From sequence record PQ724393.1: a stretch of 64,000 bases of DNA, one strand, 5' to 3'. The position numbers and the translations under genes were made by a program. Shown here one piece after another: positions 1,706 to 47,586 of the stretch. The notes below the pieces were generated by a model. The model searched no databases, had not been told where the DNA came from, and worked only from the letters and a program-made list of their open reading frames with translations. Origin of the DNA: a phage. Positions within the stretch are counted from its first letter, which is position 1. Each line of letters begins with the position of its first letter.

Positions 1706-3961
1706 TTAAAGCTTACAAGCTGCACAATCGTCGGCTTTAGGAGTTTCGATTTCGTAATCGTCTGTACCAGAGCCATCACGGGTATTGTGGTAGTAAAAAT
1801 TCTTGAGCCCATAATACCATCCGTACAGCAGGTCATCAAGCATTACGGACATCGGAACTTTTCCTTTCTCATAGTTCTGAGGGTCGTAATACGTATTCGC
1901 TGACGCCGATTGGCAAACCCATTTCAACATAATTGCTACTTGGGTAAGATAAGGTTTATTACCTTTCTTAGCGAGGCTCCAAGCGTAATCATAGAGGCCT
2001 TGGTTATGTTCTACATTAGGAACTACCTGACGGAAGTTACCTTCTTTAGATTCTTTAATACTTACCGGCCCACGCGGAGGTTCGATACCGTTGGTAGAGT
2101 TGGAAACTTGGCTGCTTGACTCGCATGGCATAAGTGCTGATAATGTGCTATTACGGATGCCATGTTTAGCCAGGTCTTCCCGCAACGACGACCAGTCACA
2201 AACATAGTTTGGGGCTGCGATTTGGTCAATCTTTTTATTGTACCAGTCGATAGGAAGCTCGCCTCGAGACCACTTAGTGTCTGAATAATACTCGCAAGGT
2301 CCTTTTTCTTCGGCCAACTTGATTGATGCTCGGATAAGTCCATATTGTAATCTCTCAAACAGTTCATGAGTTAAATCGTTTGCGTCTTCATAAGAAGCAA
2401 AGTTGCTTGCCAACCATGCAGCGTAGTTGGTAACACCTACACCCAAGTTACGACGTTTCTTAGCCTTCAAAGCTTCAGGAACAGGATAGCTTTGATAATC
2501 TAATAGGTTATCAAGTGCACGTACCTGTACTTCAGCGAGTTCGTTGATTTTGTCTTGGTCTTGCCAATCAAAGTTATCCAACACGAATGCAGACAGCGTA
2601 CACAATCCGATTTCAGCGTCCGGACTATTCACATCGGTAGTCGGGATAGCAATTTCACAACACAGGTTACTCTGGCGAATAGGAGCCTTTTCACGAATAA
2701 ATGGGGTGAAGTTGTTAGTGTTATCAACAAACTGAGGATAAATTCGTGCAGTGCCTGAACGTTCGGTCATAAACAATTCGAAGAGGTCGCGTGCTTTAAT
2801 ACGTTTCTTACGAATACTAGAGTCTTTTTCAGCCGCTTCATACAATTCACGGAAACGTTCTTGGTCTTCAAAATAAGAATAATAAAGCTCACCACCCATT
2901 TCATGAGGACTGAACAGCGTGATGTAATCATTTTTACCGAAACGTTCCATCATAAGGTCGTTCAACTGGATTCCGTAGTCCATATGGCGAATACGGTTCT
3001 CGTCGACACCTTTGTTGTTTTTCAGAACGAGCAGATTTTCAACTTCCAAATGCCAAATAGGATAATAAGCAGTAGCAGCGCCGCCACGGATTCCACCTTG
3101 TGAACATGATTTAACAGCAGTCTGGAAATGTTTCCAGAATGGAATAACGCCTGTATGTTTGACTTCACCCATGCCAATACGAGAACCTTCAGCACGAATC
3201 ATACCAACGTTGATACCAATACCTGCACGTTTAGAAATGTATTCAATTATTGAGTTAGCAGTTTTGTTAATAGATTTCAGTGAGTCGCCTGCTTCAATAA
3301 CCACACAAGAACTAAATTGACGGGTTGGTGTACGTGCCCCAGCCATAATAGGAGTTGGTAATGAAACCTGACGGGTACTTACAGCATCATAAAAACGAAT
3401 AATATGGGCTAAACGGTTCCCTGGCTCGTCTTGGTGTAAGGCCATGCCAATACACATGATAGCGAACTGAGGGGTTTCATAGATTTTACCGGTTGTTTTA
3501 TCTTTAACCAGATATTTCTCTTTAAGCTGCATTGCGCCAGCGTAAGTCAATTCAAAGTCACGTTCATGCTTGATATGAGATTCTAAGAAAGTAATTTCTT
3601 CTGCAGAATATCGAGACAGCAATTCTGGGTCATATTTACCTTCGTTAACACAATAGGAAATATGGTCAATAAAACTACGCGGTTCAAACTGGCCATAAAC
3701 TTCTTTACGCAGGGCAAACATCAATTGCTTTGCAGCAACATACTGATAATCAGGCTCTTCAACCGAGATAAGGTTGGCCGCGACCTTAACAGTCAAATTC
3801 TGGATATCTTTGGTAGTCATACCATCACGAAGGTGGGATTTGATTTCTTCGTATAATTCGTAGGGATCGATTTGGGTTCCTTCACAACCCCAAGTCAGAA
3901 CTTTAATAATTTTTTGTGCGTCAAAATCTTGGGATACACCACTACTCTTTTGTACTTGCAT
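1706..3961 (-). CDS. nrdA: Ribonucleotide reductase alpha subunit
   Basis: 751 aa ORF, class Ia RNR large subunit with C-terminal CxxC tail; synteny with nrdB/td. Confidence 0.9.
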   Translation of the reverse strand: MQVQKSSGVSQDFDAQKIIKVLTWGCEGTQIDPYELYEEIKSHLRDGMTTKDIQNLTVKVAANLISVEEPDYQYVAAKQLMFALRKEVYGQFEPRSFIDHISYCVNEGKYDPELLSRYSAEEITFLESHIKHERDFELTYAGAMQLKEKYLVKDKTTGKIYETPQFAIMCIGMALHQDEPGNRLAHIIRFYDAVSTRQVSLPTPIMAGARTPTRQFSSCVVIEAGDSLKSINKTANSIIEYISKRAGIGINVGMIRAEGSRIGMGEVKHTGVIPFWKHFQTAVKSCSQGGIRGGAATAYYPIWHLEVENLLVLKNNKGVDENRIRHMDYGIQLNDLMMERFGKNDYITLFSPHEMGGELYYSYFEDQERFRELYEAAEKDSSIRKKRIKARDLFELFMTERSGTARIYPQFVDNTNNFTPFIREKAPIRQSNLCCEIAIPTTDVNSPDAEIGLCTLSAFVLDNFDWQDQDKINELAEVQVRALDNLLDYQSYPVPEALKAKKRRNLGVGVTNYAAWLASNFASYEDANDLTHELFERLQYGLIRASIKLAEEKGPCEYYSDTKWSRGELPIDWYNKKIDQIAAPNYVCDWSSLREDLAKHGIRNSTLSALMPCESSSQVSNSTNGIEPPRGPVSIKESKEGNFRQVVPNVEHNQGLYDYAWSLAKKGNKPYLTQVAIMLKWVCQSASANTYYDPQNYEKGKVPMSVMLDDLLYGWYYGLKNFYYHNTRDGSGTDDYEIETPKADDCAACKL

Positions 3962-4089: not shown

Positions 4090-5744
<1,655 letters not shown>

Positions 5745-10940: not shown

Positions 10941-13900
10941 ATGGCCGATATTTTAAAACCTGCATTCCGTGCTACATCCGGACTCGATGCTGCGGGCGAG
11001 AAAGTTATCAATGTTGCCAAAGCCGATTACAATGTATTAGATGATGGCGTCAACGTTGAATTCTTTATAGATGAGAACACCATCCAGGCGTACGACGAGA
11101 CGCGCGGATATAAGAATGGGTTTGCCGTAATCCATGACCAACGTATCTGGGTTGCTCAACGTGATATCGCTGCACCAGCCGGAACTTTTGTACCTGGTTA
11201 TTGGACCGCTACCCGTACCGACCCTAAATGGATTACCGTAGCGTCTCCTACACGCCAGCTGGCTTCCGGTGAATATATTGCGGTGGATTCTGCTGCTAGC
11301 TTTACTACATTTACCCTGCCTCCGAACCCTACTGACGGTGATACAATCGTAATCAAGGATATTGGTGGTCGTGTAGGTTATAATGAAATTAAGCTCCAGT
11401 CTAGTTCTGCTCCAGGCGGCGGTAATCAGAAAATTGTTCGTTTTGGTAATCAGTTCACTGAGACCTTAATTACGAAGCCTTTTTCTTATAATATGATTAT
11501 CTTTGCCAACCGTTTATGGCATTTCTGGGAAGCAGCTAATGAAGAACGTGGTATTCGTGTAGAACCGAACACCGCTCAGTTCCAATCACAAGCGGGTGAT
11601 AACGTTTTGCGCCGTTATACTTCAGGTGCAGTAATTAAGTTTACTCTTCCTAAGTATGCGAACCAAGGTGATATTATTAAAACCGTTGATATCGATGGTT
11701 TAGGAAGTAAGTTCCACTTAATTGTAGAAACGTTTGATGCTTCGTCTGCATTAGGTAAACCTGGGCAGCATAGTATGGAATTCCGTACCTCCGGCGATGG
11801 ATTCTTTGTTTATAACTCTACCGAAAAATTATGGTATGTTTGGGACGGTGATCGTCAAACTCGTTTACGCGTAATTCGTGACGATGTTGAACTCTTGGCT
11901 AACGAAAGCGTTATTGTTTTTGGTCCTAATAACACGACACCACAGACAATTAATATCACATTACCTACAGGCGTAGCCCAGGGTGATGTAGTCAAGATTG
12001 CTCTGAACTATCTCCGTAAAGCTCAGACGGTAAATATTAAGGCCGCTGTAGGAGATAAAATAGCTTCTTCGGTTCAATTGCTCCAGTTCCCTAAACGTTC
12101 TGAATATCCGCCAGATACTGAATGGGTATTGAATGATGTATTGACCTTCAATGGTAACTTAAGTTATACTCCGGTTATTGAACTGAGTTATATTGAAGAC
12201 TCCACTACAGGTGGCAAATATTGGGTTGTTGCTCAGAACGTTCCTACTGTAGAACGTGTAGATTCTAAAGATGATTTAACCCGTGCTCGTCTTGGTGTTA
12301 TTGCTCTGGCGTCTCAGACCCAAGCAAACGTCGACCATGAAAATAATCCTGAAAAAGAACTGGCTATCACCCCACAGACTTTAGCCAATCGTGTAGCTAC
12401 CGAATCACGTCGTGGTATTGCTCGTATTGCTACTACTGCTCAGGTAAACCAGAACACAACTTTCGCGTTCCAGGACGATTTGATTATTTCTCCTAAGAAA
12501 TTAAACGAACGTACTGCAACCGAAACTCGTCGTGGTGTTGCTGAAATTGCTACGCAAGTTGAAACTGATGCCGGTGTTGATGATACAACCATTATCACTC
12601 CTAAGAAGCTACAGACGCGCCAGGGAACTGAAAGCCTGTCTGGTATAGTAAAATATGTATCTACCACAGGAACCACTCCTGCGACTTCTAGAGCAACTGT
12701 AGGTACTAACGTTTATAATAAGAACACAACTACTTTAGTTATTTCTCCTAAAGCTTTAGACCAATATAAAGCCGATCAAAATAACCAAGGTGCTGTATAT
12801 CTTGCTACGCAAGCCGAAGTTAATGCGGGTGCTACTAACCCAGGTTTTAGTAACTCGGTTGTCACACCTGAAACATTGGGTGCTCGTCGTGCTACTGATA
12901 CTAATCATGGTTTAATTGAAATTGCTACGCAAGCAGAGACTGATACTGGAACTGATTATACTCGTGCGGTAACGCCTAAGACGTTAAATGACAGGAATGC
13001 TACTCAAACACTTACTGGTATTGCTCGTATTGGTACTCAAGTAGAATTTGATGCAGGTGTATTAGATAATGTTATTTCAACTCCGTTGAAAGTTAAAACA
13101 AGATTTAATGATACTGCTAGAACTTCTGTCTCAGCAGCCAGTGGTTTGATTGAATCAGGAACCTTATGGAACCATTATACACTAGATATCCGTGAAGCAA
13201 GTAATACTCAACGTGGTACAGCTCGTTTGGCGACCCAAACTGAAGTTAATACTGGTACCGATGATAAAACAATCATCACTCCGCTTAAGCTTCAAGCTAA
13301 AAAGGCTACCGAAAACGCTGAAGGTATTATCCAACTCGCTACTCAGGCCGAAGTTATTGCGGGTACGATAAGTAATAAAGCGTTTAGTCCCAAGCATTAC
13401 AAATATGTCGTCCAACAGGAAAAATCCTGGGAAGCTACTTCTGCTCGTAGAGGATATGTTAAATTAACCACAGGTACCGCCACTTGGGAAGGCGATGATA
13501 CTAATGGCTCTGTTGCTAACCTGGCTAAATTTGAAGACGATGGTTTTGCTATTTCACCACTTCAGATGAACACCGCATTAACTCACTATCTTCCTATTAA
13601 AGGTAAGGCTTTTGACTCCGATAAATTGGACAACCTGGATAGCTCTCAGTTCGTCAGGAGAGATATCGACCAAATAGTTGAAGGAACATTAACCCTTCGT
13701 AAAAACATCAGAATCGATGGCCAGTTAACTACAGGTGGTACAGGTGAGTTTGGTGGTTCTTTAGCTGCTAATTCTACATTTACTATTCGTAATACAGGTG
13801 CTTCAACTCGTTTGGTATTTGAAAAAGGACCACAAACTGGAAATAACCCGTTTCAAACCATGAATATCCGAGTATGGGGTAACCAGTTTAGCGGTGGAAG

Positions 13901-14840
13901 TAATACAAGTCGTTCTACTATATTTGAAGTTGGTGATGAAACGTCTAATCACTTCTATTCACAGCGTAACGACGCTGGTAATATTACTTTTAGTATCAAC
14001 GGCACAGTTCAACCGATTAACGTTGATGCATCCGGAACATTGAATGCTAATGGTGCGGCGACATTTGGACGTTCAGTGACTGCACAGGGTGAATTCACAT
14101 CTTATAGTTCAAACGCATTTAGAGCAATTAACGGTAATTATGGTTTTATTATTCGTAATGCCGGTAATGACACCTATTTTATGCTCACCGCGGCGGGTGA
14201 ACAGACCGGTGGATTTAATGGATTACGTCCATTAATAATTAATAACCAATCGGGCCAAGTAACTATTGGTGAAAGCTTAATCATTGCCAAAGGTGCTACT
14301 ATAAATTTGGGTGGTTTAACAGTTAACTCGAGAATTCGTTCGCAGGGTACTAAACCTGCTGACCTTTATTCGAGAAAACCTAATGCCGATAATACAGGCT
14401 TCTGGTCCGTTGAAGTTAATGATTCAGCTACATATAATCAGTTCCCTGGTTATTTTGAAATGGTCGAAAAAGTTAACGAAGTAACAGGATTGCCTTACTT
14501 AGAACGTGGTGCAGAGATTAAATCCCCTGGCACATTGACCCAGTTTGGTAATACCCTGAATTCGTTATACCAAGATTGGATTACTTATCCTGCTAATGCC
14601 AACGCACGTACTACTCGTTGGACCCGTACATGGCAGCAAAGTAAAAATGCATGGTCGGGTTTTGTTCAGGTGTTTGATGGCGGTAACCCTCCTCAACCTT
14701 CTGATATCGGCGCCCTTCCGGCGGATAACGCTTCGATGAGTAACTTGACCATTCGTGACTGGTTACGTATTGGTAACGTTCGTATAGTTCCTGACCCGGT
14801 AACTCGTTCTGTTAAATTCGAATGGATTGATACACCATAA
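10941..14840 (+). CDS. 34: Long tail fiber proximal subunit gp34
   Basis: 1299 aa, repeated beta-rich fibre motifs, first gene of the 34-38 late block. Confidence 0.85.
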   Translation: MADILKPAFRATSGLDAAGEKVINVAKADYNVLDDGVNVEFFIDENTIQAYDETRGYKNGFAVIHDQRIWVAQRDIAAPAGTFVPGYWTATRTDPKWITVASPTRQLASGEYIAVDSAASFTTFTLPPNPTDGDTIVIKDIGGRVGYNEIKLQSSSAPGGGNQKIVRFGNQFTETLITKPFSYNMIIFANRLWHFWEAANEERGIRVEPNTAQFQSQAGDNVLRRYTSGAVIKFTLPKYANQGDIIKTVDIDGLGSKFHLIVETFDASSALGKPGQHSMEFRTSGDGFFVYNSTEKLWYVWDGDRQTRLRVIRDDVELLANESVIVFGPNNTTPQTINITLPTGVAQGDVVKIALNYLRKAQTVNIKAAVGDKIASSVQLLQFPKRSEYPPDTEWVLNDVLTFNGNLSYTPVIELSYIEDSTTGGKYWVVAQNVPTVERVDSKDDLTRARLGVIALASQTQANVDHENNPEKELAITPQTLANRVATESRRGIARIATTAQVNQNTTFAFQDDLIISPKKLNERTATETRRGVAEIATQVETDAGVDDTTIITPKKLQTRQGTESLSGIVKYVSTTGTTPATSRATVGTNVYNKNTTTLVISPKALDQYKADQNNQGAVYLATQAEVNAGATNPGFSNSVVTPETLGARRATDTNHGLIEIATQAETDTGTDYTRAVTPKTLNDRNATQTLTGIARIGTQVEFDAGVLDNVISTPLKVKTRFNDTARTSVSAASGLIESGTLWNHYTLDIREASNTQRGTARLATQTEVNTGTDDKTIITPLKLQAKKATENAEGIIQLATQAEVIAGTISNKAFSPKHYKYVVQQEKSWEATSARRGYVKLTTGTATWEGDDTNGSVANLAKFEDDGFAISPLQMNTALTHYLPIKGKAFDSDKLDNLDSSQFVRRDIDQIVEGTLTLRKNIRIDGQLTTGGTGEFGGSLAANSTFTIRNTGASTRLVFEKGPQTGNNPFQTMNIRVWGNQFSGGSNTSRSTIFEVGDETSNHFYSQRNDAGNITFSINGTVQPINVDASGTLNANGAATFGRSVTAQGEFTSYSSNAFRAINGNYGFIIRNAGNDTYFMLTAAGEQTGGFNGLRPLIINNQSGQVTIGESLIIAKGATINLGGLTVNSRIRSQGTKPADLYSRKPNADNTGFWSVEVNDSATYNQFPGYFEMVEKVNEVTGLPYLERGAEIKSPGTLTQFGNTLNSLYQDWITYPANANARTTRWTRTWQQSKNAWSGFVQVFDGGNPPQPSDIGALPADNASMSNLTIRDWLRIGNVRIVPDPVTRSVKFEWIDTP

Positions 14841-14848
14841 GAGGTAAT

Positions 14849-15973
14849 ATGGAAAGATTTATGGCTGAATTTGGACAAGATTACGTTCAAATTCCTGTAC
14901 TATCTGAAAATAATGCCGTTAGTTATAAACTTAGTATAGCAGGGAGCTGTACTAAGTCTACTAAAAAGGCTTATATCAAATTTCAAGATGAGGACTTCGG
15001 TCCTCAGAATTTCCAATCCGGCCTAAATTTGGTTGAAATAGACCCGACAAATAACACAATAGTAACTACAAAATCATACTCATTTACCAAAGACCATGAT
15101 GTTATTTCCCAAGCGTTTATAACTTATATTTCATCTATACCTGCTGGTAGAATTGTTTGCATTATTTCTTCCGGCAAATTAAACGCCTCACAAGTATTAA
15201 TTGATTGGTTTAGGGCTTCCGGTTCTACAGCATTTCCGGATAAATGGCTTATTGATAAAGTGGATACTTCTTATTCAGCTTTTTATGTTTCAGGAAGAAA
15301 TGCTATTGTAATGGAACATGTGCTTTATAACGATGGCGTTTTGGTAGAAGATGTTTCCACTCCATTAGAAGTCGTTTATGATAACTTTAATGATGTAGGT
15401 GGGACCGGGTTCCCTGTTAGAGTCATTGAAGATGAAAATACTTACTATAGCGGAGCTACTCAAGAAATTAAAAGGTTTCCTACCAATTCCGCCATAACTC
15501 CTTGTGCCGGTTATAATATGGTCCCTGGAGATTTCTTTTATCTTAAATTCCAAATGACCTATGACCAGGCTTTAAAAGATTTGGGGACGACTCAGATGTC
15601 CATACGATTTTTTAATGGCCAAGAAATGCTTCAATCCACTGATATCAATATTCCTGTAGGAGCAGGCTCTCCACCGGCAGGCGCATGGATGACTTTTGAG
15701 CGCGTAATAGAAGTTCCGCCAAATGCCAATGGTTTTACATTATATTGTAGAAAAACTGTCTCAGGCGGAGTAGGAGGTGTTAGGAATGTTATGTTTGGTG
15801 AAATAGCTAGACCTGAAGATACCCCTAAATCCGCTGAAATCGGTGTTAATGGTATTCGTATGAGCTATGGTACCGAAACCCGTTCAATGGGTAATGTTAT
15901 TGCACAATTGAATGACAAATCATCTGGTAACGCAGGTAAAGTATTTGTTCAAGAATTTAAAGAAAAATATTAA
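14849..15973 (+). CDS. 35: Long tail fiber hinge protein gp35
   Basis: 374 aa, size and synteny. Confidence 0.7.
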   Translation: MERFMAEFGQDYVQIPVLSENNAVSYKLSIAGSCTKSTKKAYIKFQDEDFGPQNFQSGLNLVEIDPTNNTIVTTKSYSFTKDHDVISQAFITYISSIPAGRIVCIISSGKLNASQVLIDWFRASGSTAFPDKWLIDKVDTSYSAFYVSGRNAIVMEHVLYNDGVLVEDVSTPLEVVYDNFNDVGGTGFPVRVIEDENTYYSGATQEIKRFPTNSAITPCAGYNMVPGDFFYLKFQMTYDQALKDLGTTQMSIRFFNGQEMLQSTDINIPVGAGSPPAGAWMTFERVIEVPPNANGFTLYCRKTVSGGVGGVRNVMFGEIARPEDTPKSAEIGVNGIRMSYGTETRSMGNVIAQLNDKSSGNAGKVFVQEFKEKY

Positions 15974-15994
15974 GGGACCGTAAGGTCCCTTTTT
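15974..15994 (+). terminator. Intrinsic terminator GGGACC-GUAA-GGUCCC + UUUUU after gene 35
   Basis: GC stem, GNRA loop and T-run seen directly right after the gp35 stop. Confidence 0.65.
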
Positions 15995-15996
15995 GC

Positions 15997-16004
15997 TATA
16001 AATA
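15997..16004 (+). promoter_or_regulatory. T4 late promoter TATAAATA upstream of gene 36
   Basis: Exact octamer about 26 nt before the gp36 ATG. Confidence 0.6.
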
Positions 16005-16029
16005 CGTTATCTAATAAAGAGGAATAACT

Positions 16030-16677
16030 ATGGCTGATTTAAAATTAGGCTCAACCGCCGGAGGTTCCGTTATATGGCACCAAGGCAACTTTCCGCTGAC
16101 GCCGGTATCAAATGATATTTTATATAAAACCTACAAAATCTATACCGAATTTAATAAGCCTCAAGCTACAGATAACGACTTTGTTTCTAAGGCAGCCGGA
16201 GGTACATATAAAGGTACTGTTAATTTTGAAAAAGGTATAACTTTTAACGACTCTGCCGGGTATGCTATTAAATTGGGTGCCAGAGAAGGCGGGCAACCTT
16301 TTACCGCTTCATTTAAGATTAAAGGGTCTTTTGGCCTTGAAACTGAAACGGGGACCCCATTTGTAATCTTCAACCCGAGCACTACAGTAGGAGCTAACCG
16401 TCTTACAGTAATGGGTGATATCCTTGGTCGTCAAATTAAAGACGAATCAGGCCGAGTGTTTTCTCCAGGGAATGCTCCGACAAAAGCCCAGGTAGGATTA
16501 AGTGATGTGGATAACGCAAAACAGGTCCAAATAAATAATAGTAACATACAATCCATGGCTGGTGTTCTTTCAGCCCCAAATTTCATATCTAGGAACCCAG
16601 GTACATTGAACGAACACGTTCCTCGTATTGACCAGGTTGTTCTTAGAGGTACATCTGAAGATTTTGGATATTATTAA
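16030..16677 (+). CDS. 36: Long tail fiber distal connector gp36
   Basis: 215 aa, size and synteny. Confidence 0.7.
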   Translation: MADLKLGSTAGGSVIWHQGNFPLTPVSNDILYKTYKIYTEFNKPQATDNDFVSKAAGGTYKGTVNFEKGITFNDSAGYAIKLGAREGGQPFTASFKIKGSFGLETETGTPFVIFNPSTTVGANRLTVMGDILGRQIKDESGRVFSPGNAPTKAQVGLSDVDNAKQVQINNSNIQSMAGVLSAPNFISRNPGTLNEHVPRIDQVVLRGTSEDFGYY

Positions 16678-16685
16678 GAGGCATT

Positions 16686-19600
16686 ATGGCTACTTTAAAA
16701 TCGATACAATTTAAAAGAAGTAAAATAGCAGGAGCCAAGCCTACTGCAGCCCAGTTAGATGAAGGTGAACTGGCTATTAACTTGCGTGACCGTACCATTT
16801 TTACTAAGTCAGACCAGGGACAGATTATTGACCTTGGTTTTGCAAAGGGTGGTACTGTCGATGGCGATGTAACTATTAATGGGACCCTGAATTTAAACGG
16901 TCCTGAAATTGTTGCCTCTGGTGGTTATATAGAATTTAACTATCGTACGACAGGTAGTGGCTCTTGGGCAGGCCAGCACAGGGCCAAAGCTCCTATTTTT
17001 GCTGATTTAAGTGCGGCTGCATCTACTTCAGAATACAACCCACTGATTAAACAACGCTTTAAAGATGGAACATTTTCAGCAGGCACATTAGTTTCGGAAG
17101 GTAGTTTTAAATTCCACTATATTAATGAAGCTGGTGATTCAAAATATTGGACCTTTAATCGTAATGGTAATTTTCAAGTTGATACCGGTAGTTTAATGGT
17201 ATCAGCAGGTAATATTTCTGCATCAGGCAACATAAATTCGGCTAATGGTATTATCACCGGTCCTGAAATTGTTACCAAAAATATTAATTTCAGTACAAAA
17301 TCATTTGTAGCTAATGCAAATATAGGATACGACTGGGTTTCATTACCTACCTGGGTTTATAATCCTCCTGCTGATGGTTCTGATGATACTACTAACGGTT
17401 TAAACTATTTGCGTAAATTGCGTGCATCAAGTGCATCAAGTATTTTCCATGAAATTGCTGATTGTCGCAAAGGTAAACCACAAGAAATTTCTTGGTGGAC
17501 CGGCGTAGGACCATCGTCTTTCCAATGGGCTTTTGATAACTCTGGACGTATTACCGCAGGTAAATCAATTTCTGTAGGTCTTCCTGATAATGGTACAAAT
17601 GGTCGTTACCCACTAGATTCAGCAATTTCTATTGGTATTGCAATTGGTGATAATGACACCGGTATTAAATGGGTTCGTGACGGCGTTATTGATTTCATGG
17701 CTAACAGTATTTCAACCGCTACCATTTTGAATAACGGTATTAACAGTACTAAAAAATTGACGGTCGGTTATAGCCGTGATTCCGGCTCTACTTGGGATTT
17801 CCCAAATAACAACCAGGCAATGTTTACTGCTCGTACCGATATTGATGGTAATAATAATGGTGACGGTCAGACTCATATCGGTTATAGCAGCAATGCCAAG
17901 ATGTATCACTATTTCCGTGGCACAGGTCGTATGTCTGTTAGTATGGGTGATGGACTTCTTGTTGAACCGGGTATTTTAGATATTAAAACCGGTTCAAATT
18001 CATTAAATTTACGTGCTGACGGTACTGTTGCTTCAACGAAAAGAATTAAACTTGATAATGGATTGGTTCTTACCGGTTCTAGACCTGATGGTATTCAACT
18101 TGATGCACCCACATCAGTAGATGGCACTAAATCTATTTTGTGGGCTGGTGGTACTCGCGCAGGTCAGAATAAAAACTATGTAACTATTAAAGCATGGGGT
18201 AATGCATTCAACTCAACTGGTGATAAAACCCGTGAAACCGTATTTGAAGTTGGAGATGGACAAGGATACCATTTTTATTCACAGCGCATATCCCCTACCG
18301 GAGTTGAAACAGTTGGCCCTGTGATTATTCAAATGGCAGGTAGTTTATTGGCTCGTGGTACGTTAAACACTGATGGCAATCTTTATGTGAAAGGATTAAG
18401 TACACATGAAGGTACTGTGACCATGAATAATGGCCTTCGTTTAACTGGCGGCGCTAATATAAGCGGCCAGGTTAAAATTGGTGGTGTTAACGATGCATTG
18501 AGAATTTGGAACGACCGATATGGTGCTATTTTCCGTCGCTCAGAAACATCATTACATATTATCCCGACCAATGAAAATGAAGGTGAAAACGGTCCGATAA
18601 GCAACCTTCGCCCGTTTAGTATTGAATTAGGTACTGGTGCCATTAATATGGGCCATTCTTTAATGATAGGCAACTCGGCCCGCGGTGATGGCCTGCTGAA
18701 TATTGATACCAAAGCATTCTTGATTACAATTAACAGTCATTCGAAAATTAAACCTAATTATCGTATGGACTTAGAAAACGGTGCTTATATAAATGCTTTA
18801 ATGGATGCAAACGGTCGTTCAGCTGGCGCAGGTTCATTCGCGTCCCAGAATAATGAAAACGTCCGCGCTCCATTCTACATGAATATCGACCGTGATGATA
18901 CCAGCACTTATGTTCCAATGATAAAGCAACGTTATGTTCAGGGTAATGGATGTTTTTCAATAGGTACTTTGTTGAATAATGGCAACTTCCGCGTCCATTA
19001 TCACGCTGGTGGTGACGGTGGTTCGACTGGTGCTCAGATTGCAGATTACGGTTGGGAATTCACTAAATCCGGTGATTTTGTATCTCCACGACGTGTCTCG
19101 GCAGGTGGTTCGGTTTATCTAGGTACGGATGGTAATATCACTGGTGGTTCTGGTAATTTCTCTAACCTGAATACTACTTTAGACCGCAAAGTTACCACGG
19201 GGTGGATTAACTATTCTTCTGAAAGTGGCTGGTATAAATTGGCAACAGTAAATATGCCTCAAGGTGCAGCTACGGTCCAATTTAAAATAACAGGCGGTTC
19301 CGGTTTTAACGTTGGTATTTTTAGACAAGCAACAATTAATGAAATTGTATTGCGTTCCGGTAATAATACACCTAAAGGAATTAACGGTGTTTTATGGCAG
19401 CGCGAAACTGATGCTATTAAAGACATTGCATATATTAATACCTCAGACGATGAGTATGATGTTTATATTAATTGTGGTACTTATTTAAATAGACTTACCC
19501 TAGAATATAGCACTTCAGAAAACGCTTCGGTAGTAGTTTATGGATTATATGGGCCTACGCAATCACCGGTAGAAGAGCTTCCTGTAGATATTGTTAAAGG

Positions 19601-20663
19601 TCGTGTTTTTAAACTTCTTAATAATAGCTCAGATGTTTTTGACGCTGGTAGTTCTAATATTTCTACAAATGCCACCTTTGTTGCTAATACAACTGTAGGT
19701 TTCCGCCATAAATCCAATGGTGATGAAAGTGGTTCTGCCGCTACTCTGTTTTATAATGATGGTACTACGTTCCATATATTATTAACAGATAAGAACACCG
19801 ACACAGATAAAACTAAAGCCTCTGGTTCTAACAACAGTTTAAGGCCTTTTTCTATCAATATTGCTTCTGGTAAAGTAACTATTTCAAACTCTATGAGTGT
19901 TTCTGGTGTTGCAGAGTTTTATAACGGTCTTAATATCAAAAACAATGGAAGCATTAATTTTGATAAGTCTGGTGCGAACCCGAGAAACATGCGTATATTC
20001 CATGCCGGTGATGCTTCACGTGGAAACCGTATTGAAGTTGCGGATGAGTCTAATTACTTAGTTTATTGGGAAAAAACTCCGGGCGGCGCAAACCGTTCTT
20101 CATATAACCAATGTGAAGTTAATGGTATAACTACTCTTAACGTTAATACTAAAGTGAACACCCCACAAATTGGAGCATTTGGTGTTAACACAACTAATGG
20201 ATTTGGTGGTAACTCAATTGTAATAGGTGATACCGATACAGGTTTCAGACAAGTTGGCGATGGACTTTTAGAAGTTTGGACCAATGCCGTTCGCCGGATG
20301 CGATTCCAGAGTGGTGACACTTATTCTGATATGAATATAAATGCTCCAAACGTTTATATTCGTTCGGATATCAGATTGAAATCTAACTTCAAACCTATTG
20401 AAAATGCTCTTGAAAAGGTTGAACAGCTCGACGGTTTAATCTATGATAAAGCTGATTATATTGGTGGAGAGGTTGTTCACACTGAAGCAGGTGTTATTGC
20501 ACAGAGCCTGGAAAAAGTATTACCTGAAGCTATTCGTGAAGTTGAAGATATCAAAGGTAATAAAGTTCTGACCGTTTCGACTCAGGCCCAAGTGGCGCTG
20601 TTACTTGAAGCGGTTAAAACCCTGTCGGCTAAAGTTAGAGAACTTGAAGCTAAATTAAATTAA
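16686..20663 (+). CDS. 37: Long tail fiber distal subunit gp37 with C-terminal intramolecular chaperone-like domain
   Basis: 1325 aa; C-terminal ~110 aa carries SDIRLK (S74-type autoproteolysis signature) and a coiled-coil tail. Confidence 0.85.
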   Translation: MATLKSIQFKRSKIAGAKPTAAQLDEGELAINLRDRTIFTKSDQGQIIDLGFAKGGTVDGDVTINGTLNLNGPEIVASGGYIEFNYRTTGSGSWAGQHRAKAPIFADLSAAASTSEYNPLIKQRFKDGTFSAGTLVSEGSFKFHYINEAGDSKYWTFNRNGNFQVDTGSLMVSAGNISASGNINSANGIITGPEIVTKNINFSTKSFVANANIGYDWVSLPTWVYNPPADGSDDTTNGLNYLRKLRASSASSIFHEIADCRKGKPQEISWWTGVGPSSFQWAFDNSGRITAGKSISVGLPDNGTNGRYPLDSAISIGIAIGDNDTGIKWVRDGVIDFMANSISTATILNNGINSTKKLTVGYSRDSGSTWDFPNNNQAMFTARTDIDGNNNGDGQTHIGYSSNAKMYHYFRGTGRMSVSMGDGLLVEPGILDIKTGSNSLNLRADGTVASTKRIKLDNGLVLTGSRPDGIQLDAPTSVDGTKSILWAGGTRAGQNKNYVTIKAWGNAFNSTGDKTRETVFEVGDGQGYHFYSQRISPTGVETVGPVIIQMAGSLLARGTLNTDGNLYVKGLSTHEGTVTMNNGLRLTGGANISGQVKIGGVNDALRIWNDRYGAIFRRSETSLHIIPTNENEGENGPISNLRPFSIELGTGAINMGHSLMIGNSARGDGLLNIDTKAFLITINSHSKIKPNYRMDLENGAYINALMDANGRSAGAGSFASQNNENVRAPFYMNIDRDDTSTYVPMIKQRYVQGNGCFSIGTLLNNGNFRVHYHAGGDGGSTGAQIADYGWEFTKSGDFVSPRRVSAGGSVYLGTDGNITGGSGNFSNLNTTLDRKVTTGWINYSSESGWYKLATVNMPQGAATVQFKITGGSGFNVGIFRQATINEIVLRSGNNTPKGINGVLWQRETDAIKDIAYINTSDDEYDVYINCGTYLNRLTLEYSTSENASVVVYGLYGPTQSPVEELPVDIVKGRVFKLLNNSSDVFDAGSSNISTNATFVANTTVGFRHKSNGDESGSAATLFYNDGTTFHILLTDKNTDTDKTKASGSNNSLRPFSINIASGKVTISNSMSVSGVAEFYNGLNIKNNGSINFDKSGANPRNMRIFHAGDASRGNRIEVADESNYLVYWEKTPGGANRSSYNQCEVNGITTLNVNTKVNTPQIGAFGVNTTNGFGGNSIVIGDTDTGFRQVGDGLLEVWTNAVRRMRFQSGDTYSDMNINAPNVYIRSDIRLKSNFKPIENALEKVEQLDGLIYDKADYIGGEVVHTEAGVIAQSLEKVLPEAIREVEDIKGNKVLTVSTQAQVALLLEAVKTLSAKVRELEAKLN

Positions 20664-20668
20664 GAAAA

Positions 20669-20682
20669 GGGCCTTCGGGCCC
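20669..20682 (+). other. Hairpin GGGCC-UUCG-GGCCC in the 37-38 spacer, abutting the gp38 SD
   Basis: Perfect stem and tetraloop seen; no U tract. Confidence 0.4.
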
Positions 20683-20694
20683 TAAGGATTTATT

Positions 20695-21495
20695 ATGGCA
20701 ATCGTAGGATTACCCGGTTGGGTCGGCCAATCTGCAGTTGACGAAACAGGTCAACGTTGGATGGATGCAGCAATGCGTGATGTTCGTGTAGCTGTTCCGG
20801 GTTGGATGGGTTCGATGGCTAACCAATCAAAAGAAATTTACTTATCTATAGGGGCTAATCATAACTATGATAGGAATACCCTTATAAACTGGATGAGAGC
20901 ACAAGGTGGTGCGCCTGTGGTTATTACAATTACCGGCGACTTGGTATCAAATAGCCGCGGAAACCCTTGCCTGGAATTCCCTAGCAATCTTCCTAACGCA
21001 TATATTCAACTTACCATTAATAGCGGTGTGACTGTTTATGGCCGAGGAGGCCGAGGAGGCTGGACCCATAGCAACGGCAATGGTAATGGTGAGGCCGGCG
21101 GAATAGCCATACAAAACAATGCCGGAACTAAACTTCGTATCCGTAATAATGGCGCTATAGCCGGTGGTGGTGGCGGTGGCGGTGGCATCGCGTATAGGCC
21201 CCATTCAGGTGCTAACTGGCAAGATATAGGCGCTGGCGGCGGTAGACCATTTGGTGCAGCTGGTGGCGGAGGATACTCCGGTGGGGCGGCATCTCTTACC
21301 GGAGCAGGTGGTGGTTATAATTATGGTAACGCGCATTCCGGTGCTGGTGGGAATGTCGGTGCTAAAGGCCAAAACGCTTGGAATGATGGAGGTAAAGTGC
21401 TTAAAGTTGGCGCTGGTGGTAATGCTGGGGCAGCAGTCGCCGGTAATGCTCCTAACTGGCAAAACGTTGGTACGATATACGGAAGCAGAGTATAA
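20695..21495 (+). CDS. 38: T2-type receptor-binding adhesin gp38 with glycine-rich motifs
   Basis: N-terminus MAIVGLPGWVGQSAVDETGQRW, poly-Gly blocks, C-terminal WQNVGTIYGSRV. Confidence 0.8.
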   Translation: MAIVGLPGWVGQSAVDETGQRWMDAAMRDVRVAVPGWMGSMANQSKEIYLSIGANHNYDRNTLINWMRAQGGAPVVITITGDLVSNSRGNPCLEFPSNLPNAYIQLTINSGVTVYGRGGRGGWTHSNGNGNGEAGGIAIQNNAGTKLRIRNNGAIAGGGGGGGGIAYRPHSGANWQDIGAGGGRPFGAAGGGGYSGGAASLTGAGGGYNYGNAHSGAGGNVGAKGQNAWNDGGKVLKVGAGGNAGAAVAGNAPNWQNVGTIYGSRV

Positions 21496-21505
21496 TACCC
21501 CATAT

Positions 21506-21513
21506 TATAAATA
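21506..21513 (+). promoter_or_regulatory. T4 late promoter TATAAATA upstream of holin t
   Basis: Exact octamer followed by AAGGAG SD and ATG. Confidence 0.6.
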
Positions 21514-21531
21514 TCTTTAAAGGAGAAAAGT

Positions 21532-22185
21532 ATGGAACCAAAAGTAGGATTTTCATTATCAGACCTACTTTTTGGACTTCTTGATAGAATTTTTAAAGAT
21601 ACTTCTTCCGGGAAAGTAGTTTTTTCCCGGGTCCTAGTCGTAATATTATTGTTCTTTATGGCACTGGTTTGGTATAAAGGCGAGTATATTCTAAACTTTT
21701 ACAAAGAGACAACTTATGCCTCTTATACTGAAATGATTAGACAAGACCAGGACAATAGATTTAAAATTGCGGCTATCGAGCAGCTCCGAATAGTGCATTC
21801 TTCTTCAGGCGCGGACTTCACAGCAATATATTCTTTTAGACCAACCAACATGAATTATTTTGTGGATATGGTTGCTTACGAGGGTAAATTACCGGAAACG
21901 GTAGACGCAAAAAATACGGGAGGGTTTCCAATTGACAAAACGTCAGTAGAATATATGGCGGGAGTTAACGGGAACTATTTTGAATCAAGTACCGAAACTG
22001 TATTCCTTCCTACAAAGAAGAAAACACAATTCACATATATGTTTTCATGCCCGTTTTTTAATTTGGATAACGTCTACGCCGGCTCGATATCGTTGTACTG
22101 GTACGATATCAAACCGGATTTAGGATTTCCTAGACTTTCGTCTATGTGTGGTCAAGCCGGGAGGACATTAGGTCGAACACGTTAG
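21532..22185 (+). CDS. t: Holin T
   Basis: 217 aa, N-terminal TM segment plus large periplasmic domain, T-holin-like; after gene 38 as in T4. Confidence 0.8.
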   Translation: MEPKVGFSLSDLLFGLLDRIFKDTSSGKVVFSRVLVVILLFFMALVWYKGEYILNFYKETTYASYTEMIRQDQDNRFKIAAIEQLRIVHSSSGADFTAIYSFRPTNMNYFVDMVAYEGKLPETVDAKNTGGFPIDKTSVEYMAGVNGNYFESSTETVFLPTKKKTQFTYMFSCPFFNLDNVYAGSISLYWYDIKPDLGFPRLSSMCGQAGRTLGRTR

Positions 22186-45036: not shown

Positions 45037-45060
45037 GAAAAAAGGAACCCGAAGGTTCCT
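45037..45060 (-). terminator. Intrinsic terminator AGGAACC-UUCG-GGUUCCU + U6 downstream of soc
   Basis: 7-bp stem, UUCG loop, U-run on the minus-strand transcript. Confidence 0.6.
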
Positions 45061-45065
45061 TATAA

Positions 45066-45299
45066 TTAAACTACTGGGGTCGGTGTGAACATTGCTGCGT
45101 TCTTGGTCTTCCAGTCAGCAGCATCAGTCACTACAGTAGTATAGGCTGCAACGGCCGAAGGGAAAGTCTGATAATGAGAATCTGCAATACGGTGCTCGTT
45201 TGAATAAATCTCAAACGGGACAGACACTTCAACACCTTTAACTTCTTTACCTTCACCAGCTGGATGCGTAAAGGTTTTGATATTAACGAAACCACCCAT
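45066..45299 (-). CDS. soc: Small outer capsid protein Soc
   Basis: 77 aa; VNIKTF and HYQTFPS motifs as in T4 Soc. Confidence 0.75.
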   Translation of the reverse strand: MGGFVNIKTFTHPAGEGKEVKGVEVSVPFEIYSNEHRIADSHYQTFPSAVAAYTTVVTDAADWKTKNAAMFTPTPVV

Positions 45300-45330
45300 A
45301 ATAAACTCCTTTGTTGTTTAATTACAGGTG

Positions 45331-45338
45331 TATTTATA
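45331..45338 (-). promoter_or_regulatory. T4 late promoter TATAAATA upstream of soc
   Basis: Exact octamer on minus strand about 32 nt before the soc ATG. Confidence 0.55.
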
Positions 45339-45340
45339 AC

Positions 45341-45880
45341 TTAATAACCTCGGTCTTGACGAGCAAAGTTCTCGGCATTTTTCAGATAATACAGTTTAAA
45401 GATTTCTTCAGCAGTCAGACCAAGACCTTGGAACATATTCAGAACAAAGTGCAGAATATCAATCATTTCGAATTTAATTTCGAGCTGGTCTTCAGGAGAG
45501 AGTTCGTCAATACGACGATTACGGAATTCGGCATGTTGTGCCTTCCACGGCTTCCACACACTGGATGCGGCTTTCTCACCATTACTCATACCGCCAAGAG
45601 AAGTCAGAAGTTCACGGAATTCATCATCAATATAATCTTTCTGGTTGCGAAGCCAATCAACAACTTGACCTGCTGTAGCTAGTTCATCAGGATTGGTGTT
45701 GAATTCTGATTTTTCAGTAGCCAAACGAACCTGTAATGATTTCTGCATATCAAGCATAACCTGCAGAGGGTCTTTATCTTCGTGAATCAGAGCATTAAAA
45801 TAAGCTTCTTCAGCTTTATCAACACCTGCAATAAGTTGTGAGCATTCGTTAAAGTGTGCCATTATATTTTTCCTTTTCAA
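45341..45880 (-). CDS. 56: dCTP pyrophosphatase gp56 (MazG-like)
   Basis: 179 aa, T4 gene 56 position next to soc. Confidence 0.6.
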   Translation of the reverse strand: MKRKNIMAHFNECSQLIAGVDKAEEAYFNALIHEDKDPLQVMLDMQKSLQVRLATEKSEFNTNPDELATAGQVVDWLRNQKDYIDDEFRELLTSLGGMSNGEKAASSVWKPWKAQHAEFRNRRIDELSPEDQLEIKFEMIDILHFVLNMFQGLGLTAEEIFKLYYLKNAENFARQDRGY

Positions 45881-45952
45881 TTCATTAGTAAGTTAGATAA
45901 TTATAAACTGTTAGATTAAAGCGAATAAATATTAATTTAACAGGAGGATAAC

Positions 45953-46153
45953 ATGGGTAGTATTTTTTACCAAATCTGGAAATTGGCCGAAAAGAAAGAC
46001 AAGAAAATGATGTTAGGTTTTCTTGCGCTAGACGTATTCCTTTGGAATCTTTTAGTAGTCCCTGTAGCCGCTAGCCAAGGGATAATTTTACCAGCGGTTA
46101 CAATGGAACACGTATTAAGCATAATTGGATTCTTTAGCGGAGTTCCTGCCTAA
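45953..46153 (+). CDS. Small membrane protein, 66 aa, opposite strand to its neighbours
   Basis: Strong SD AGGAGG 7 nt before ATG; two hydrophobic segments. Confidence 0.45.
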   Translation: MGSIFYQIWKLAEKKDKKMMLGFLALDVFLWNLLVVPVAASQGIILPAVTMEHVLSIIGFFSGVPA

Positions 46154-47178
46154 ATTTTGGAATATTTAGAAAGTCTCATTTTGGCCATTAGACCTTGGGC
46201 TATATTAGCTTTCATATATGTCAGTACATCATTTATATCAGCTTTATCTTTCATAATCATATCATTTATATCTTTAGAAGGCCATGGAGCCTTGTCCCAG
46301 AATAGAACCCTTTCGCCAGCATCAACTAATCGTTGCATACGCTTAATTGTGTCAGGATGGCGGGGTTCATTGTCCATTACCCAGGCACGAGTTTCTTTAC
46401 ATGGAACTATAGCCAAATCTAACGACCCGCCAGTAATTGCTATTGCATTCGGTACGAATAATGAATCGATAGGACCTTCCATTACCCAGACCAATTGACG
46501 TTCGTCGACTGTATCCATTCCATATATTTTTGTAGCTTGGTCATGAGCTTTTATTGTAATATATTTTTGTGGAGCATCTTTACGCAAGGCTCGACCCTGA
46601 AAACTTTCTATTTGTTTATCCTTATTGAAAATAGGAATAACCAAACGAGGCTCAGGCATTTCTTTAGAATAGGTCCCTGGATTCACAGAGTTCACCAATG
46701 CCGGCCATTCTTTAGTAAACCACAGCCGGTTCCATTTGTTTTCAGGAATGCAACGTAGTGTTACATATTTGATAATAGGATGGTCCTTCGGCATTCTATC
46801 TAATCGTTCACAGAAATTAAGCTTTTCGATGACAGGCATCTTAGCTTTAATTTTTTCAGATATCTCCACCTTAGGTGCAGCTTGTCTCCCGAACGATTGC
46901 TCTTTATGTTTCTCAAGAATATATTCTCGATATAAATCCGGCTCATATTCGTATAGATACTTCTTAATTCCTGCTGAATAGTCGCAGTTAAAACAGTGCA
47001 GCATTACGGAGCCATCATTAGCCGGATAGGCCCAAAAACGAGCTTTGTTCTCATCTTTTTGGGAGTCGCCACATACACGACAACGACAGTTTAATTTAAA
47101 ATCACTACCGGTTACTTGTCTGAATTTAGGTTGGTAATTCAAGGCACGTACAGCAAATTCTCTATCGACATATGACAT
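46150..47178 (-). CDS. 61: DNA primase gp61
   Basis: 342 aa; N-terminal zinc ribbon (CRCRVCGD...CFNC) and TOPRIM-like region. Confidence 0.85.
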   Translation of the reverse strand: MSYVDREFAVRALNYQPKFRQVTGSDFKLNCRCRVCGDSQKDENKARFWAYPANDGSVMLHCFNCDYSAGIKKYLYEYEPDLYREYILEKHKEQSFGRQAAPKVEISEKIKAKMPVIEKLNFCERLDRMPKDHPIIKYVTLRCIPENKWNRLWFTKEWPALVNSVNPGTYSKEMPEPRLVIPIFNKDKQIESFQGRALRKDAPQKYITIKAHDQATKIYGMDTVDERQLVWVMEGPIDSLFVPNAIAITGGSLDLAIVPCKETRAWVMDNEPRHPDTIKRMQRLVDAGERVLFWDKAPWPSKDINDMIMKDKADINDVLTYMKANIAQGLMAKMRLSKYSKI

Positions 47179-47216
47179 TATTTTTCCTTGGGCTCTAAAT
47201 TAATAGAGCCATTATA

Positions 47217-47378
47217 TCATTCGTTTTCGGATTTTTCTTTACGCTTTTTAGATGGGATTTGTTCAGGCCCTTTGTTGACGACTGCGCCTGAGGTAGTTCC
47301 GGAGGCAATATTAGATGGATTTCCACCAGCATCGCCTGCGACCATATCTTCGTTCATAACTTCTTTAAAAGATTTCAT
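47217..47378 (-). CDS. Small Gly/Lys-rich hypothetical ORF, 53 aa
   Basis: Hand-translated; SD AGGAG upstream; TATAAATA octamer at 47392-47399 (minus). Confidence 0.25.
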   Translation of the reverse strand: MKSFKEVMNEDMVAGDAGGNPSNIASGTTSGAVVNKGPEQIPSKKRKEKSENE

Positions 47379-47394
47379 AGGCTCCTGGCCTTAT

Positions 47395-47586
47395 TTATAT
47401 TACGAAAATAGCTTTATCACCATTTGCATCAGTGACTTCATAGGTATCTTCGTGGTAAAGTGGGATAATCCAAGTCACACCATCACCAGCAATAATATGG
47501 ATAGCTTCTTGGTCTTTTGATACGATTTCATATTCTTCGAACAATTCGAATACAGAAATCTTAGAGCCCGTACACATTGCACTCAT
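47395..47586 (-). CDS. Hypothetical protein
   Basis: 63 aa ORF. Confidence 0.35.
   Translation of the reverse strand: MSAMCTGSKISVFELFEEYEIVSKDQEAIHIIAGDGVTWIIPLYHEDTYEVTDANGDKAIFVI

Follow-up and report, generated by a model that had tools for sequence, protein, structure and literature searches.

Does a single small open reading frame (ORF) on the plus strand, set into a long block of minus-strand phage genes, encode a protein, and if so, when would it be made and what could it do? The question is raised by a locus in a stretch of phage DNA of 64,000 nucleotides (record PQ724393.1; the entire stretch is referred to here as the window), in which all gene-like ORFs of at least 110 aa from ∼22.2 kb to 64 kb lie on the minus strand. 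Between gene 56 (dCTPase; 45341..45862, −) and the primase gene 61 (46150..47178, −), both the ORF list and the sequence itself contain a 66-aa ORF on the plus strand that starts with ATG (45953..46153). A first-pass annotation of the sequence had described it as a gene for a small membrane protein, which could be independently timed and act in exclusion or lysis modulation. The coordinates and the length it gave are exact, and the ORF is, as claimed, the sole plus-strand gene across ∼42 kb of minus-strand genes. The only plus-strand block of the window (10941..22185) comprises the tail-fibre genes and the holin gene t; the latter (21532..22185) is far from the 66-aa ORF.

Local layout between genes 56 and 61

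The region from 45300 to 47200 is 99.7% identical to the corresponding DNA of Escherichia phage fDHCT2 and 93–95% identical to that of JS98-like Dhakavirus phages, which identifies the window as DNA of a T4-like phage. Within it, the ORF converges on gene 61 (as had been noticed before), and the two genes share 3–4 nt at their stop codons: the TAG of gene 61 (46150–46152, −) and the TAA of the ORF (46151–46153, +) overlap within 46150..46153. A Shine-Dalgarno (SD) sequence, AGGAGG (45942..45947, +), precedes the ATG with a spacer of 5 nt (ataac); the motif had been recognized correctly, but its spacing had been given as 7 nt. SD sequences of the GGAG/GAGG type were found in front of all orthologues. 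On the opposite side, the start of gene 56 is placed at a TTG (45880, −; 179 aa) in the mechanically generated ORF list, whereas annotated orthologues of gene 56 begin at the equivalent of an ATG (45862, −; 173 aa), which has the better SD.

No terminator-like site was found on the minus strand between genes 61 and 56, so early/middle read-through from 61 to 56 would be antisense to the ORF. The antisense geometry proposed in the first-pass annotation is, thus, correct.

The ORF is almost certainly a protein-coding gene

The ORF product matched the PHROG 2024 profile with an E-value of 5.8e-28 (residues 1–64 versus positions 1–64 of 65), and the same family was matched by all 34 aligned relatives (34/34). 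When the reading frames of the locus were compared among 13 orthologues sharing between 18% and 100% identity, +1 was the sole frame open in 13/13. W31, N32, P37, and P47 are invariant in the 34 diverse members of the alignment, down to identities of 15–20%, and G43, V49, and G63 vary little or not at all. The family core can be written as W-N-x4-P-x5-G-x3-P-x-V in a protein of ∼57–74 aa, and the window ORF conforms to both. Synonymous sites were saturated in most comparisons between genera, which makes the respective dN/dS values unusable; in the most informative of the pairs unsaturated at these sites, dN/dS was ∼0.16–0.2. A within-genus test of codon positions was, therefore, added. The 15 sites that vary between six Dhakavirus genomes split 4/1/10 over the first, second, and third codon position, and all amino acid replacements in the 66-aa protein were swaps among I, V, and A.

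The opposing explanation is that the ORF arose by chance in an AT-rich spacer, the conservation of which reflects regulatory DNA of genes 61 and 56. Two observations speak for it: several orthologues have an antisense −2 frame that is largely open as well and, within Dhakavirus, the ORF region is less variable (7.5% variable sites) than the flanking genes (10–20%). However, Moon, Q7622, and CGG4-1 have an interrupted −2 frame, which leaves only +1 open throughout, and the length (57–74 aa), the SD, the position of the start codon, and the invariant residues are all kept across genera despite the saturation of synonymous sites. A search of the ORF region against Rfam gave no family match, and the fold of the transcript was not unusual (z = −1.04). 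The chance origin of the ORF is, thus, close to refuted and essentially excluded. A 51-aa antisense ORF at the same locus (45967..46122, −) was rejected as a gene, as several orthologues do not keep its frame intact. Judged by profile match, alignment, and frame conservation, the CDS at 45953..46153 (+) is almost certainly a genuine protein-coding gene, namely, the Dhakavirus orthologue of the gene named dam.1 in phage T4T.

Distribution, synteny, and two subtypes of the dam.1 family

The gene is not new: it is already catalogued as encoding a hypothetical protein, and its T4 orthologue is named dam.1 in the T4T genome (HM137666, ADJ39749). Proteins 100% identical to that of the window have been deposited as “hypothetical protein” for QL01, WG01, E33, and other phages. 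The T4 orthologue is intact (66 aa; NC_000866.4 17738..17938, +, corresponding to 4239..4439 of the fetched locus L003) and is located within the 309 nt that separate dam from 61. With the window protein, it shares membership in PHROG 2024, the length of 66 aa, position and orientation, the overlap with the stop codon of gene 61, a late-promoter-like element plus SD upstream, and the W-N...P...G...P-x-V core. The two proteins are, however, only ∼20% identical and represent two divergent subtypes: the window protein is of the JS98 type, with the N-terminus MGSIFYQIWKL and an Asp in the transmembrane helix, whereas the T4 protein is of the T4 type. They also differ in their upstream neighbour, which is gene 56 in the window and dam in T4.

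Using tblastn, the JS98-type protein matched 139 phage records spanning at least eight genera (Dhakavirus, Marfavirus, Gaprivervirus, Kanagawavirus, Mosugukvirus, Gelderlandvirus, Moonvirus, and Mosigvirus); the T4-type protein, typified by that of T4, matched 698 records, a set that partly overlaps with the former. The family is nonetheless narrow. It comprises 120 clusters at 90% identity, and a deep profile search among 1.84 billion representative proteins retrieved 20 clusters at 50% identity, the members of which are all 45–82 aa long and share a common motif. For one distant metagenomic member, tblastn gave weak, partial matches to the PHROG 2024 family in known T4-like phages; another one could not be placed anywhere by tblastn. 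Overall, the family is restricted to phages of enterobacteria.

Synteny was inspected in T4, Marfa, Moon, VR26, Q7622, PM2, CGG4-1, EK29, WFL6982, Entb45, and two metagenomic loci (L019 and L021). In every locus opened, the orthologue converges on the 3′ end of gene 61 and lies on the strand opposite to its neighbours. A 4-nt overlap of the stop codons is also present in T4, Marfa, Moon, EK29, WFL6982, Entb45, L019, and L021. The upstream neighbour, in turn, varies: besides gene 56 (window) and dam (T4), unrelated hypothetical genes occupy this position in Marfa and Moon. In RB49 (Krischvirus), the genes 56 and 61 are just 14 nt apart and the ORF is absent, which marks it as an accessory gene rather than a part of the T4 core.

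Two phages hold both subtypes in tandem, the T4-type copy first and the JS98-type copy second: VR26, where the paralogues are 8 nt apart (L005 2495..2692 and 2701..2901), and ESCO47 (proteins P0128 and P0099). This arrangement indicates an old duplication followed by reciprocal loss. In VR26, only the first copy is preceded by a late-promoter element; the second has none of its own. In SP18, TH54, TH57, and RZ, only the C-terminal part of a JS98-type copy was matched, and the second copy appears to be truncated in these phages.

A conserved element suggests late transcription

T4 late promoters do not need a −35 element. Upstream of the SD, 21 nt before the ATG, lies a T4-type late promoter element, AATAAATA (45924..45931, +), which matches the consensus TATAAATA at −13 to −6 except for an A at −13. 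Of 50 T4 late-promoter sites listed by Geiduschek and Kassavetis (PMC2988020), 32 are perfect, nine carry A(−13), which makes it the commonest variant, and one has a TA-to-AT exchange; the one-mismatch element of the window, hence, represents an accepted single-deviation variant. Transcription is predicted to start at ∼45937, which would result in a leader of ∼16 nt. The corresponding start in T4 would be at ∼17,722 of NC_000866.4, 6 nt past the end of GATAAATA (∼17,716).

All first-in-operon orthologues (15/15) possess NATAAATA or ATTAAATA 13–21 nt before their ATG. The individual element is TATAAATA in Marfa, EK29, Q7622, and Entb45; AATAAATA in WFL6982, as in the window; GATAAATA in T4 and PM2; CATAAATA in the first copy of VR26 (VR26_a), ECML359, PEi20, L019, and L021; and ATTAAATA in Moon and CGG4-1. 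Across six Dhakavirus genomes, it is invariant. The motif ATAAATA is rare: counted over both strands, the 64-kb window contains just 12 copies, and its background frequency in all fetched loci is 0.3 per kb per strand. As both the bases around the element and the gene before it vary from genus to genus, selection appears to act on the late motif itself. No convincing early promoter was found for the ORF, sigma-70-like matches being at chance level. The sequence, thus, suggests that the ORF is probably expressed late, from a gp55-type promoter of its own, inside a block of early/middle replication genes. The independent timing considered in the first-pass annotation gains support from this conserved element, which had gone unnoticed there.

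Late transcripts of T4 can have either polarity (PMC2988020), and a T4 dRNA-seq study reports 150 phage transcription start sites, of which 22 are antisense (bioRxiv 10.1101/2024.04.04.588121). As no plus-strand terminator-like site was found 3′ of the ORF before ∼47379, a late transcript starting at AATAAATA should extend antisense through gene 61. With a lone gene of late type on the opposite strand of an early replication block, the locus would be well suited to studying how late transcription switches strands and whether convergent antisense transcription affects the primase mRNA.

Further promoter-like signals are present in the immediate surroundings. The late gene soc of the window has the same layout, TATAAATA followed by SD and ATG: the soc homologue (45066..45299, −) is preceded by a perfect late promoter (45331..45338, −), and a terminator-like hairpin with an 8-bp stem (45061..45042, −) follows directly at its 3′ end. 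On the other side of gene 61, a 61.1-like ORF of 53 aa (47217..47378, −) has a perfect TATAAATA (47392..47399, −) and AGGAG upstream, a second late-promoter-like signal inside the “early” block, here on the minus strand; a small hairpin plus T-run (47379..47391, +) is situated beside this element. Gene 56 is preceded on the minus strand by a middle-promoter-like element, composed of the MotA-box-like TTCGCTTTA (45925..45917), a spacer of 11 nt, and TATAAT (45905..45900), which ends up ∼38 nt before the gene 56 ATG (45862); this middle-promoter-like element stands back-to-back with AATAAATA (45924..45931, +), and the two overlap by 2 nt. According to the record annotation, the gene 56 transcript primes the origin oriA in T4.

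A predicted membrane protein with a proposed conserved outer surface

Two hydrophobic segments had been assigned to the ORF product in the first-pass annotation. One of them holds: residues ∼19–41 (codons 19–41, 46007..46075, +), which contain D27, W31, N32, and P37, reach the highest 19-residue Kyte–Doolittle mean (KD19; 2.05), and the AlphaFold model (mean pLDDT 72) has a helix at 14–41 (pLDDT 80–85). The other one, residues 44–66, is marginal. It is moderately hydrophobic (KD19 1.1–1.7) with E52 and H53 inside, its summed Hessa energy is 5–11 kcal/mol compared with 3.6 for the best 19-residue transmembrane window, and AlphaFold places a loop (42–50) and a short helix (51–62) there, but no second transmembrane helix. 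With one solid transmembrane segment predicted by hydropathy and structural model, the product is very likely a membrane protein, as had been proposed.

The segment preceding the predicted transmembrane helix (codons 1–18, 45953..46006, +) is amphipathic and basic, with a predicted helix at 3–11. Its net charge is +3 in the window protein and between +2 and +7 across 34 members; the sequence of this part, predicted to be cytoplasmic, is the least conserved of the protein, with only the charge being kept. The C-terminal tail carries a conserved acidic residue at position 52 and has a net charge of −1 in the window protein (−2 to +1 across 34 members). Applying the positive-inside rule, the basic N-terminus and the slightly acidic tail predict an N-in/C-out topology. 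The conserved loop and the short amphipathic helix at the C-terminus (codons 42–66, 46076..46150, +) would, thus, be located in the periplasm or at its interface with the membrane. The column entropy of the protein is lowest in the loop at 42–50, which contains G43, P47, and V49. All of the invariant residues map to the outer half of the helix or directly follow it, which suggests that the protein may have a surface for binding where membrane and periplasm meet. The helix itself differs between the subtypes: D27 is conserved within the JS98-type subgroup, to which the window protein belongs, and the T4-type and Moon-type helices are rich in Gly, Ala, Ser, and Thr (30–39%).

What the protein may do

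When its three parts are taken together—a real gene, late timing, and a membrane protein—the overall picture is, on balance, the somewhat more probable case. It can be described as follows. Late in infection, transcription would initiate at AATAAATA and proceed on the plus strand, opposite to the surrounding early/middle genes. The ∼16-nt leader with its strong SD would drive translation of the 66-aa protein, which would insert into the inner membrane with its N-terminus in the cytoplasm, one transmembrane helix, and a tail of ∼25 residues at the periplasmic face. The surface formed by W31, N32, P37, G43, P47, and V49 might bind a conserved partner in the envelope, of phage or host origin. The protein could then act as an accessory modulator of late envelope events, and timing or inhibition of lysis around holin T would be the foremost candidate among these.

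A role related to lysis is possible, but can be proposed only tentatively. Small, late phage membrane proteins usually are lysis-related, and this prior, together with the conserved surface facing the periplasm, is the reason for the proposal. As RB49 lacks the gene, its product would be dispensable for the core cycle. Searches of families, PHROGs, and folds revealed no similarity to holins, antiholins, or spanins, and the gene is not adjacent to t, rI, or e. To our knowledge, T4 genetics never mapped an r-type or lysis mutant to the dam.1 spot. Pfam, NCBIfam, and PADLOC gave no meaningful match, and the weaker PHROG matches beyond PHROG 2024 were all of unknown function. A sequence-profile search against the PDB returned only noise (YejA, E ∼0.5). 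Foldseek retrieved family members from BFVD, plus weak matches to helices labelled “holin” with E >0.3, and nothing below E 3.9 from the PDB. Should a role in lysis timing hold true, a new component would be added to a well-studied system; if no phenotype were found, dam.1 would simply join the numerous small membrane proteins with which T4 is equipped as accessories.

Known small proteins of phage lysis resemble the predicted dam.1-family protein in some respects. The T4 antiholin RI influences the timing of lysis from within the periplasm and is made early as well as late. Its likeness to the 66-aa protein is functional only (small size, anchoring in the membrane through the N-terminus, and a C-terminus exposed to the periplasm), to which the fairly Gly/Ala/Ser/Thr-rich anchor of T4-type and Moon-type members can be added; the predicted periplasmic part is ∼25 residues here versus a globular domain of ∼70 residues in RI. 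The missing globular domain and the lack of similarity in sequence or fold speak against an antiholin of the RI type. Judged by sequence features, the protein would share with class II/III holins, such as the pinholin S68 of phage 21 and gp17.5 of T7, the length (60–75 aa), the one or two hydrophobic segments, and presumed late expression. Unlike them, however, it has no charged hydrophilic C-terminal tail, its basic cluster being N-terminal, no endolysin gene is adjacent, and the phage already has holin T. The hydrophobic to slightly acidic C-terminus, the absence of any match to a holin family, and the neighbours 56 and 61 in place of a lysis cassette speak against a holin.

The main rival to a function in lysis is that the membrane protein is directed against other phages or against host defence, be it through late superinfection exclusion or through inhibition of a membrane-based system of abortive infection. 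The neighbourhood is rich in genes of host interaction and anti-defence (sp, dmd, 61.2, modA/B, srh, and mrh), the family is confined to enterobacterial phages, and the occurrence of two divergent subtypes, both of them in tandem in VR26 and ESCO47, is a pattern common in arms races. On the other hand, the gene has a late-promoter element and no convincing early promoter, no match to PADLOC or any other family was obtained, and the very strong conservation of the invariant core is unlike the fast-evolving surface of an arms race; this alternative is, thus, considered unlikely. Imm and Sp of T4 are encoded by early genes on the minus strand and must act before superinfection. They are small proteins located in the envelope, as is predicted for the 66-aa protein, and sp is only a few genes away, but the ORF, a plus-strand gene preceded by a late-type promoter, shares no homology with them. 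The late-type promoter and PHROG 2024 as the sole family match speak against an Imm- or Sp-like protein. Neither the exclusion nor the lysis function suggested in the first-pass annotation is supported by the analysis, and exclusion is made less likely by the gene looking late, whereas the known exclusion proteins of T4 are early.

Two further explanations relate to the transcript and to virion assembly. The late transcript itself could be what is mainly selected, extending antisense into gene 61, pairing with the read-through RNA of 61-to-56, and contributing to the late shut-off of primase and early mRNA, with the peptide being secondary. In almost all genera examined, the ORF and gene 61 overlap at their convergent stop codons, and no plus-strand terminator-like site was found before ∼47379, both of which are in line with such a role; moreover, T4 has several sites at which the two strands are transcribed at different times (PMC2988020), and antisense transcription of gene 32 is referenced in PMC3014915. 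What argues against it is the constraint on the amino acids (invariant W, N, P, and P, the excess of variable sites at third positions, and a reading frame kept open down to 18% identity) and the strong, conserved SD, which points to translation; besides, the structure of the transcript is unremarkable, and the overlap may be mere synteny in a tightly packed genome. The late antisense transcription known from T4, for instance opposite gene 32, resembles the situation in the window in that a late transcript would oppose early genes (PMC2988020 and a reference in PMC3014915), but the transcript here would contain an ORF that is conserved and under constraint, preceded by a strong SD. The clear coding constraint speaks against a non-coding cis-antisense RNA, and Rfam contained no match. 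Although the RNA and the protein may both have a role, as the two are not mutually exclusive, an RNA role alone cannot explain the coding constraint, and selection acting primarily on the transcript is very unlikely.

Alternatively, the protein might assist late morphogenesis from the membrane side, for example, in prohead initiation with gp20 and gp40. Assembly of the T4 head begins on the inner membrane. The promoter pointing to late timing and the predicted inner-membrane location would fit, as would the presence of a gp40 homologue only a few kb away (PF11113 in L019, and by annotation in RB49). However, RB49 keeps gp40 without a gene of the dam.1 family, the conserved face is expected on the periplasmic side of the membrane and proheads form on the opposite, cytoplasmic one, and the cytoplasmic N-terminus is the part least conserved in sequence, which makes assistance in morphogenesis highly improbable. 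The lysis-related reading can also be extended from the single gene to the family: dam.1 proteins might constitute a so far unrecognized means of late envelope control across the Tevenvirinae, perhaps as small partners of holin T and, thereby, new factors of lysis or its inhibition, and the transcript might, in addition, silence the primase mRNA. So broad a proposal is quite unlikely to hold in full; if it did, T4 would still be hiding a component of its lysis clock that is missing from the reference annotation.

Annotation of the family and insertions beside gene 56

Although T4 serves as the reference phage, no CDS is annotated for the orthologue in NC_000866.4, the RefSeq record, which thereby omits an ORF conserved in more than 800 T4-like genomes. 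Consequently, omics studies that use NC_000866.4 would not count dam.1. The orthologue has also been left unannotated in JS98, IME08, JS10, and PEi20. In the literature search, no paper was found that mentions “dam.1” or “phrog_2024,” and a search on Ribo-seq and small ORFs found nothing on T4. The candidate late promoter and the missing T4 reference annotation are among the most useful outcomes of the analysis.

Wrong product names have been propagated within the family, including “dCTP pyrophosphatase,” “DNA packaging ATPase,” “thymidylate synthase,” and “Holin,” for example, in the records of dhabil_90, CGG4-1 gp026, SAKp28, phage 04086, and OE5505. None of these names is supported by any similarity found; the UniProt label “Holin” on one family member, too, is an unsupported automatic name. 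Correction of these entries in the public databases is due.

The interval between gene 56 and the ORF is itself variable in some relatives. IME08, vB_SalD_ABTNLS3, E33, and LQ5 carry an insertion of ∼630–770 bp there, which in two of these phages is annotated as a homing endonuclease (mobE in IME08). In T4 and VR26, segF adjoins gene 56. The spot beside gene 56 is a hot spot for homing endonuclease genes.
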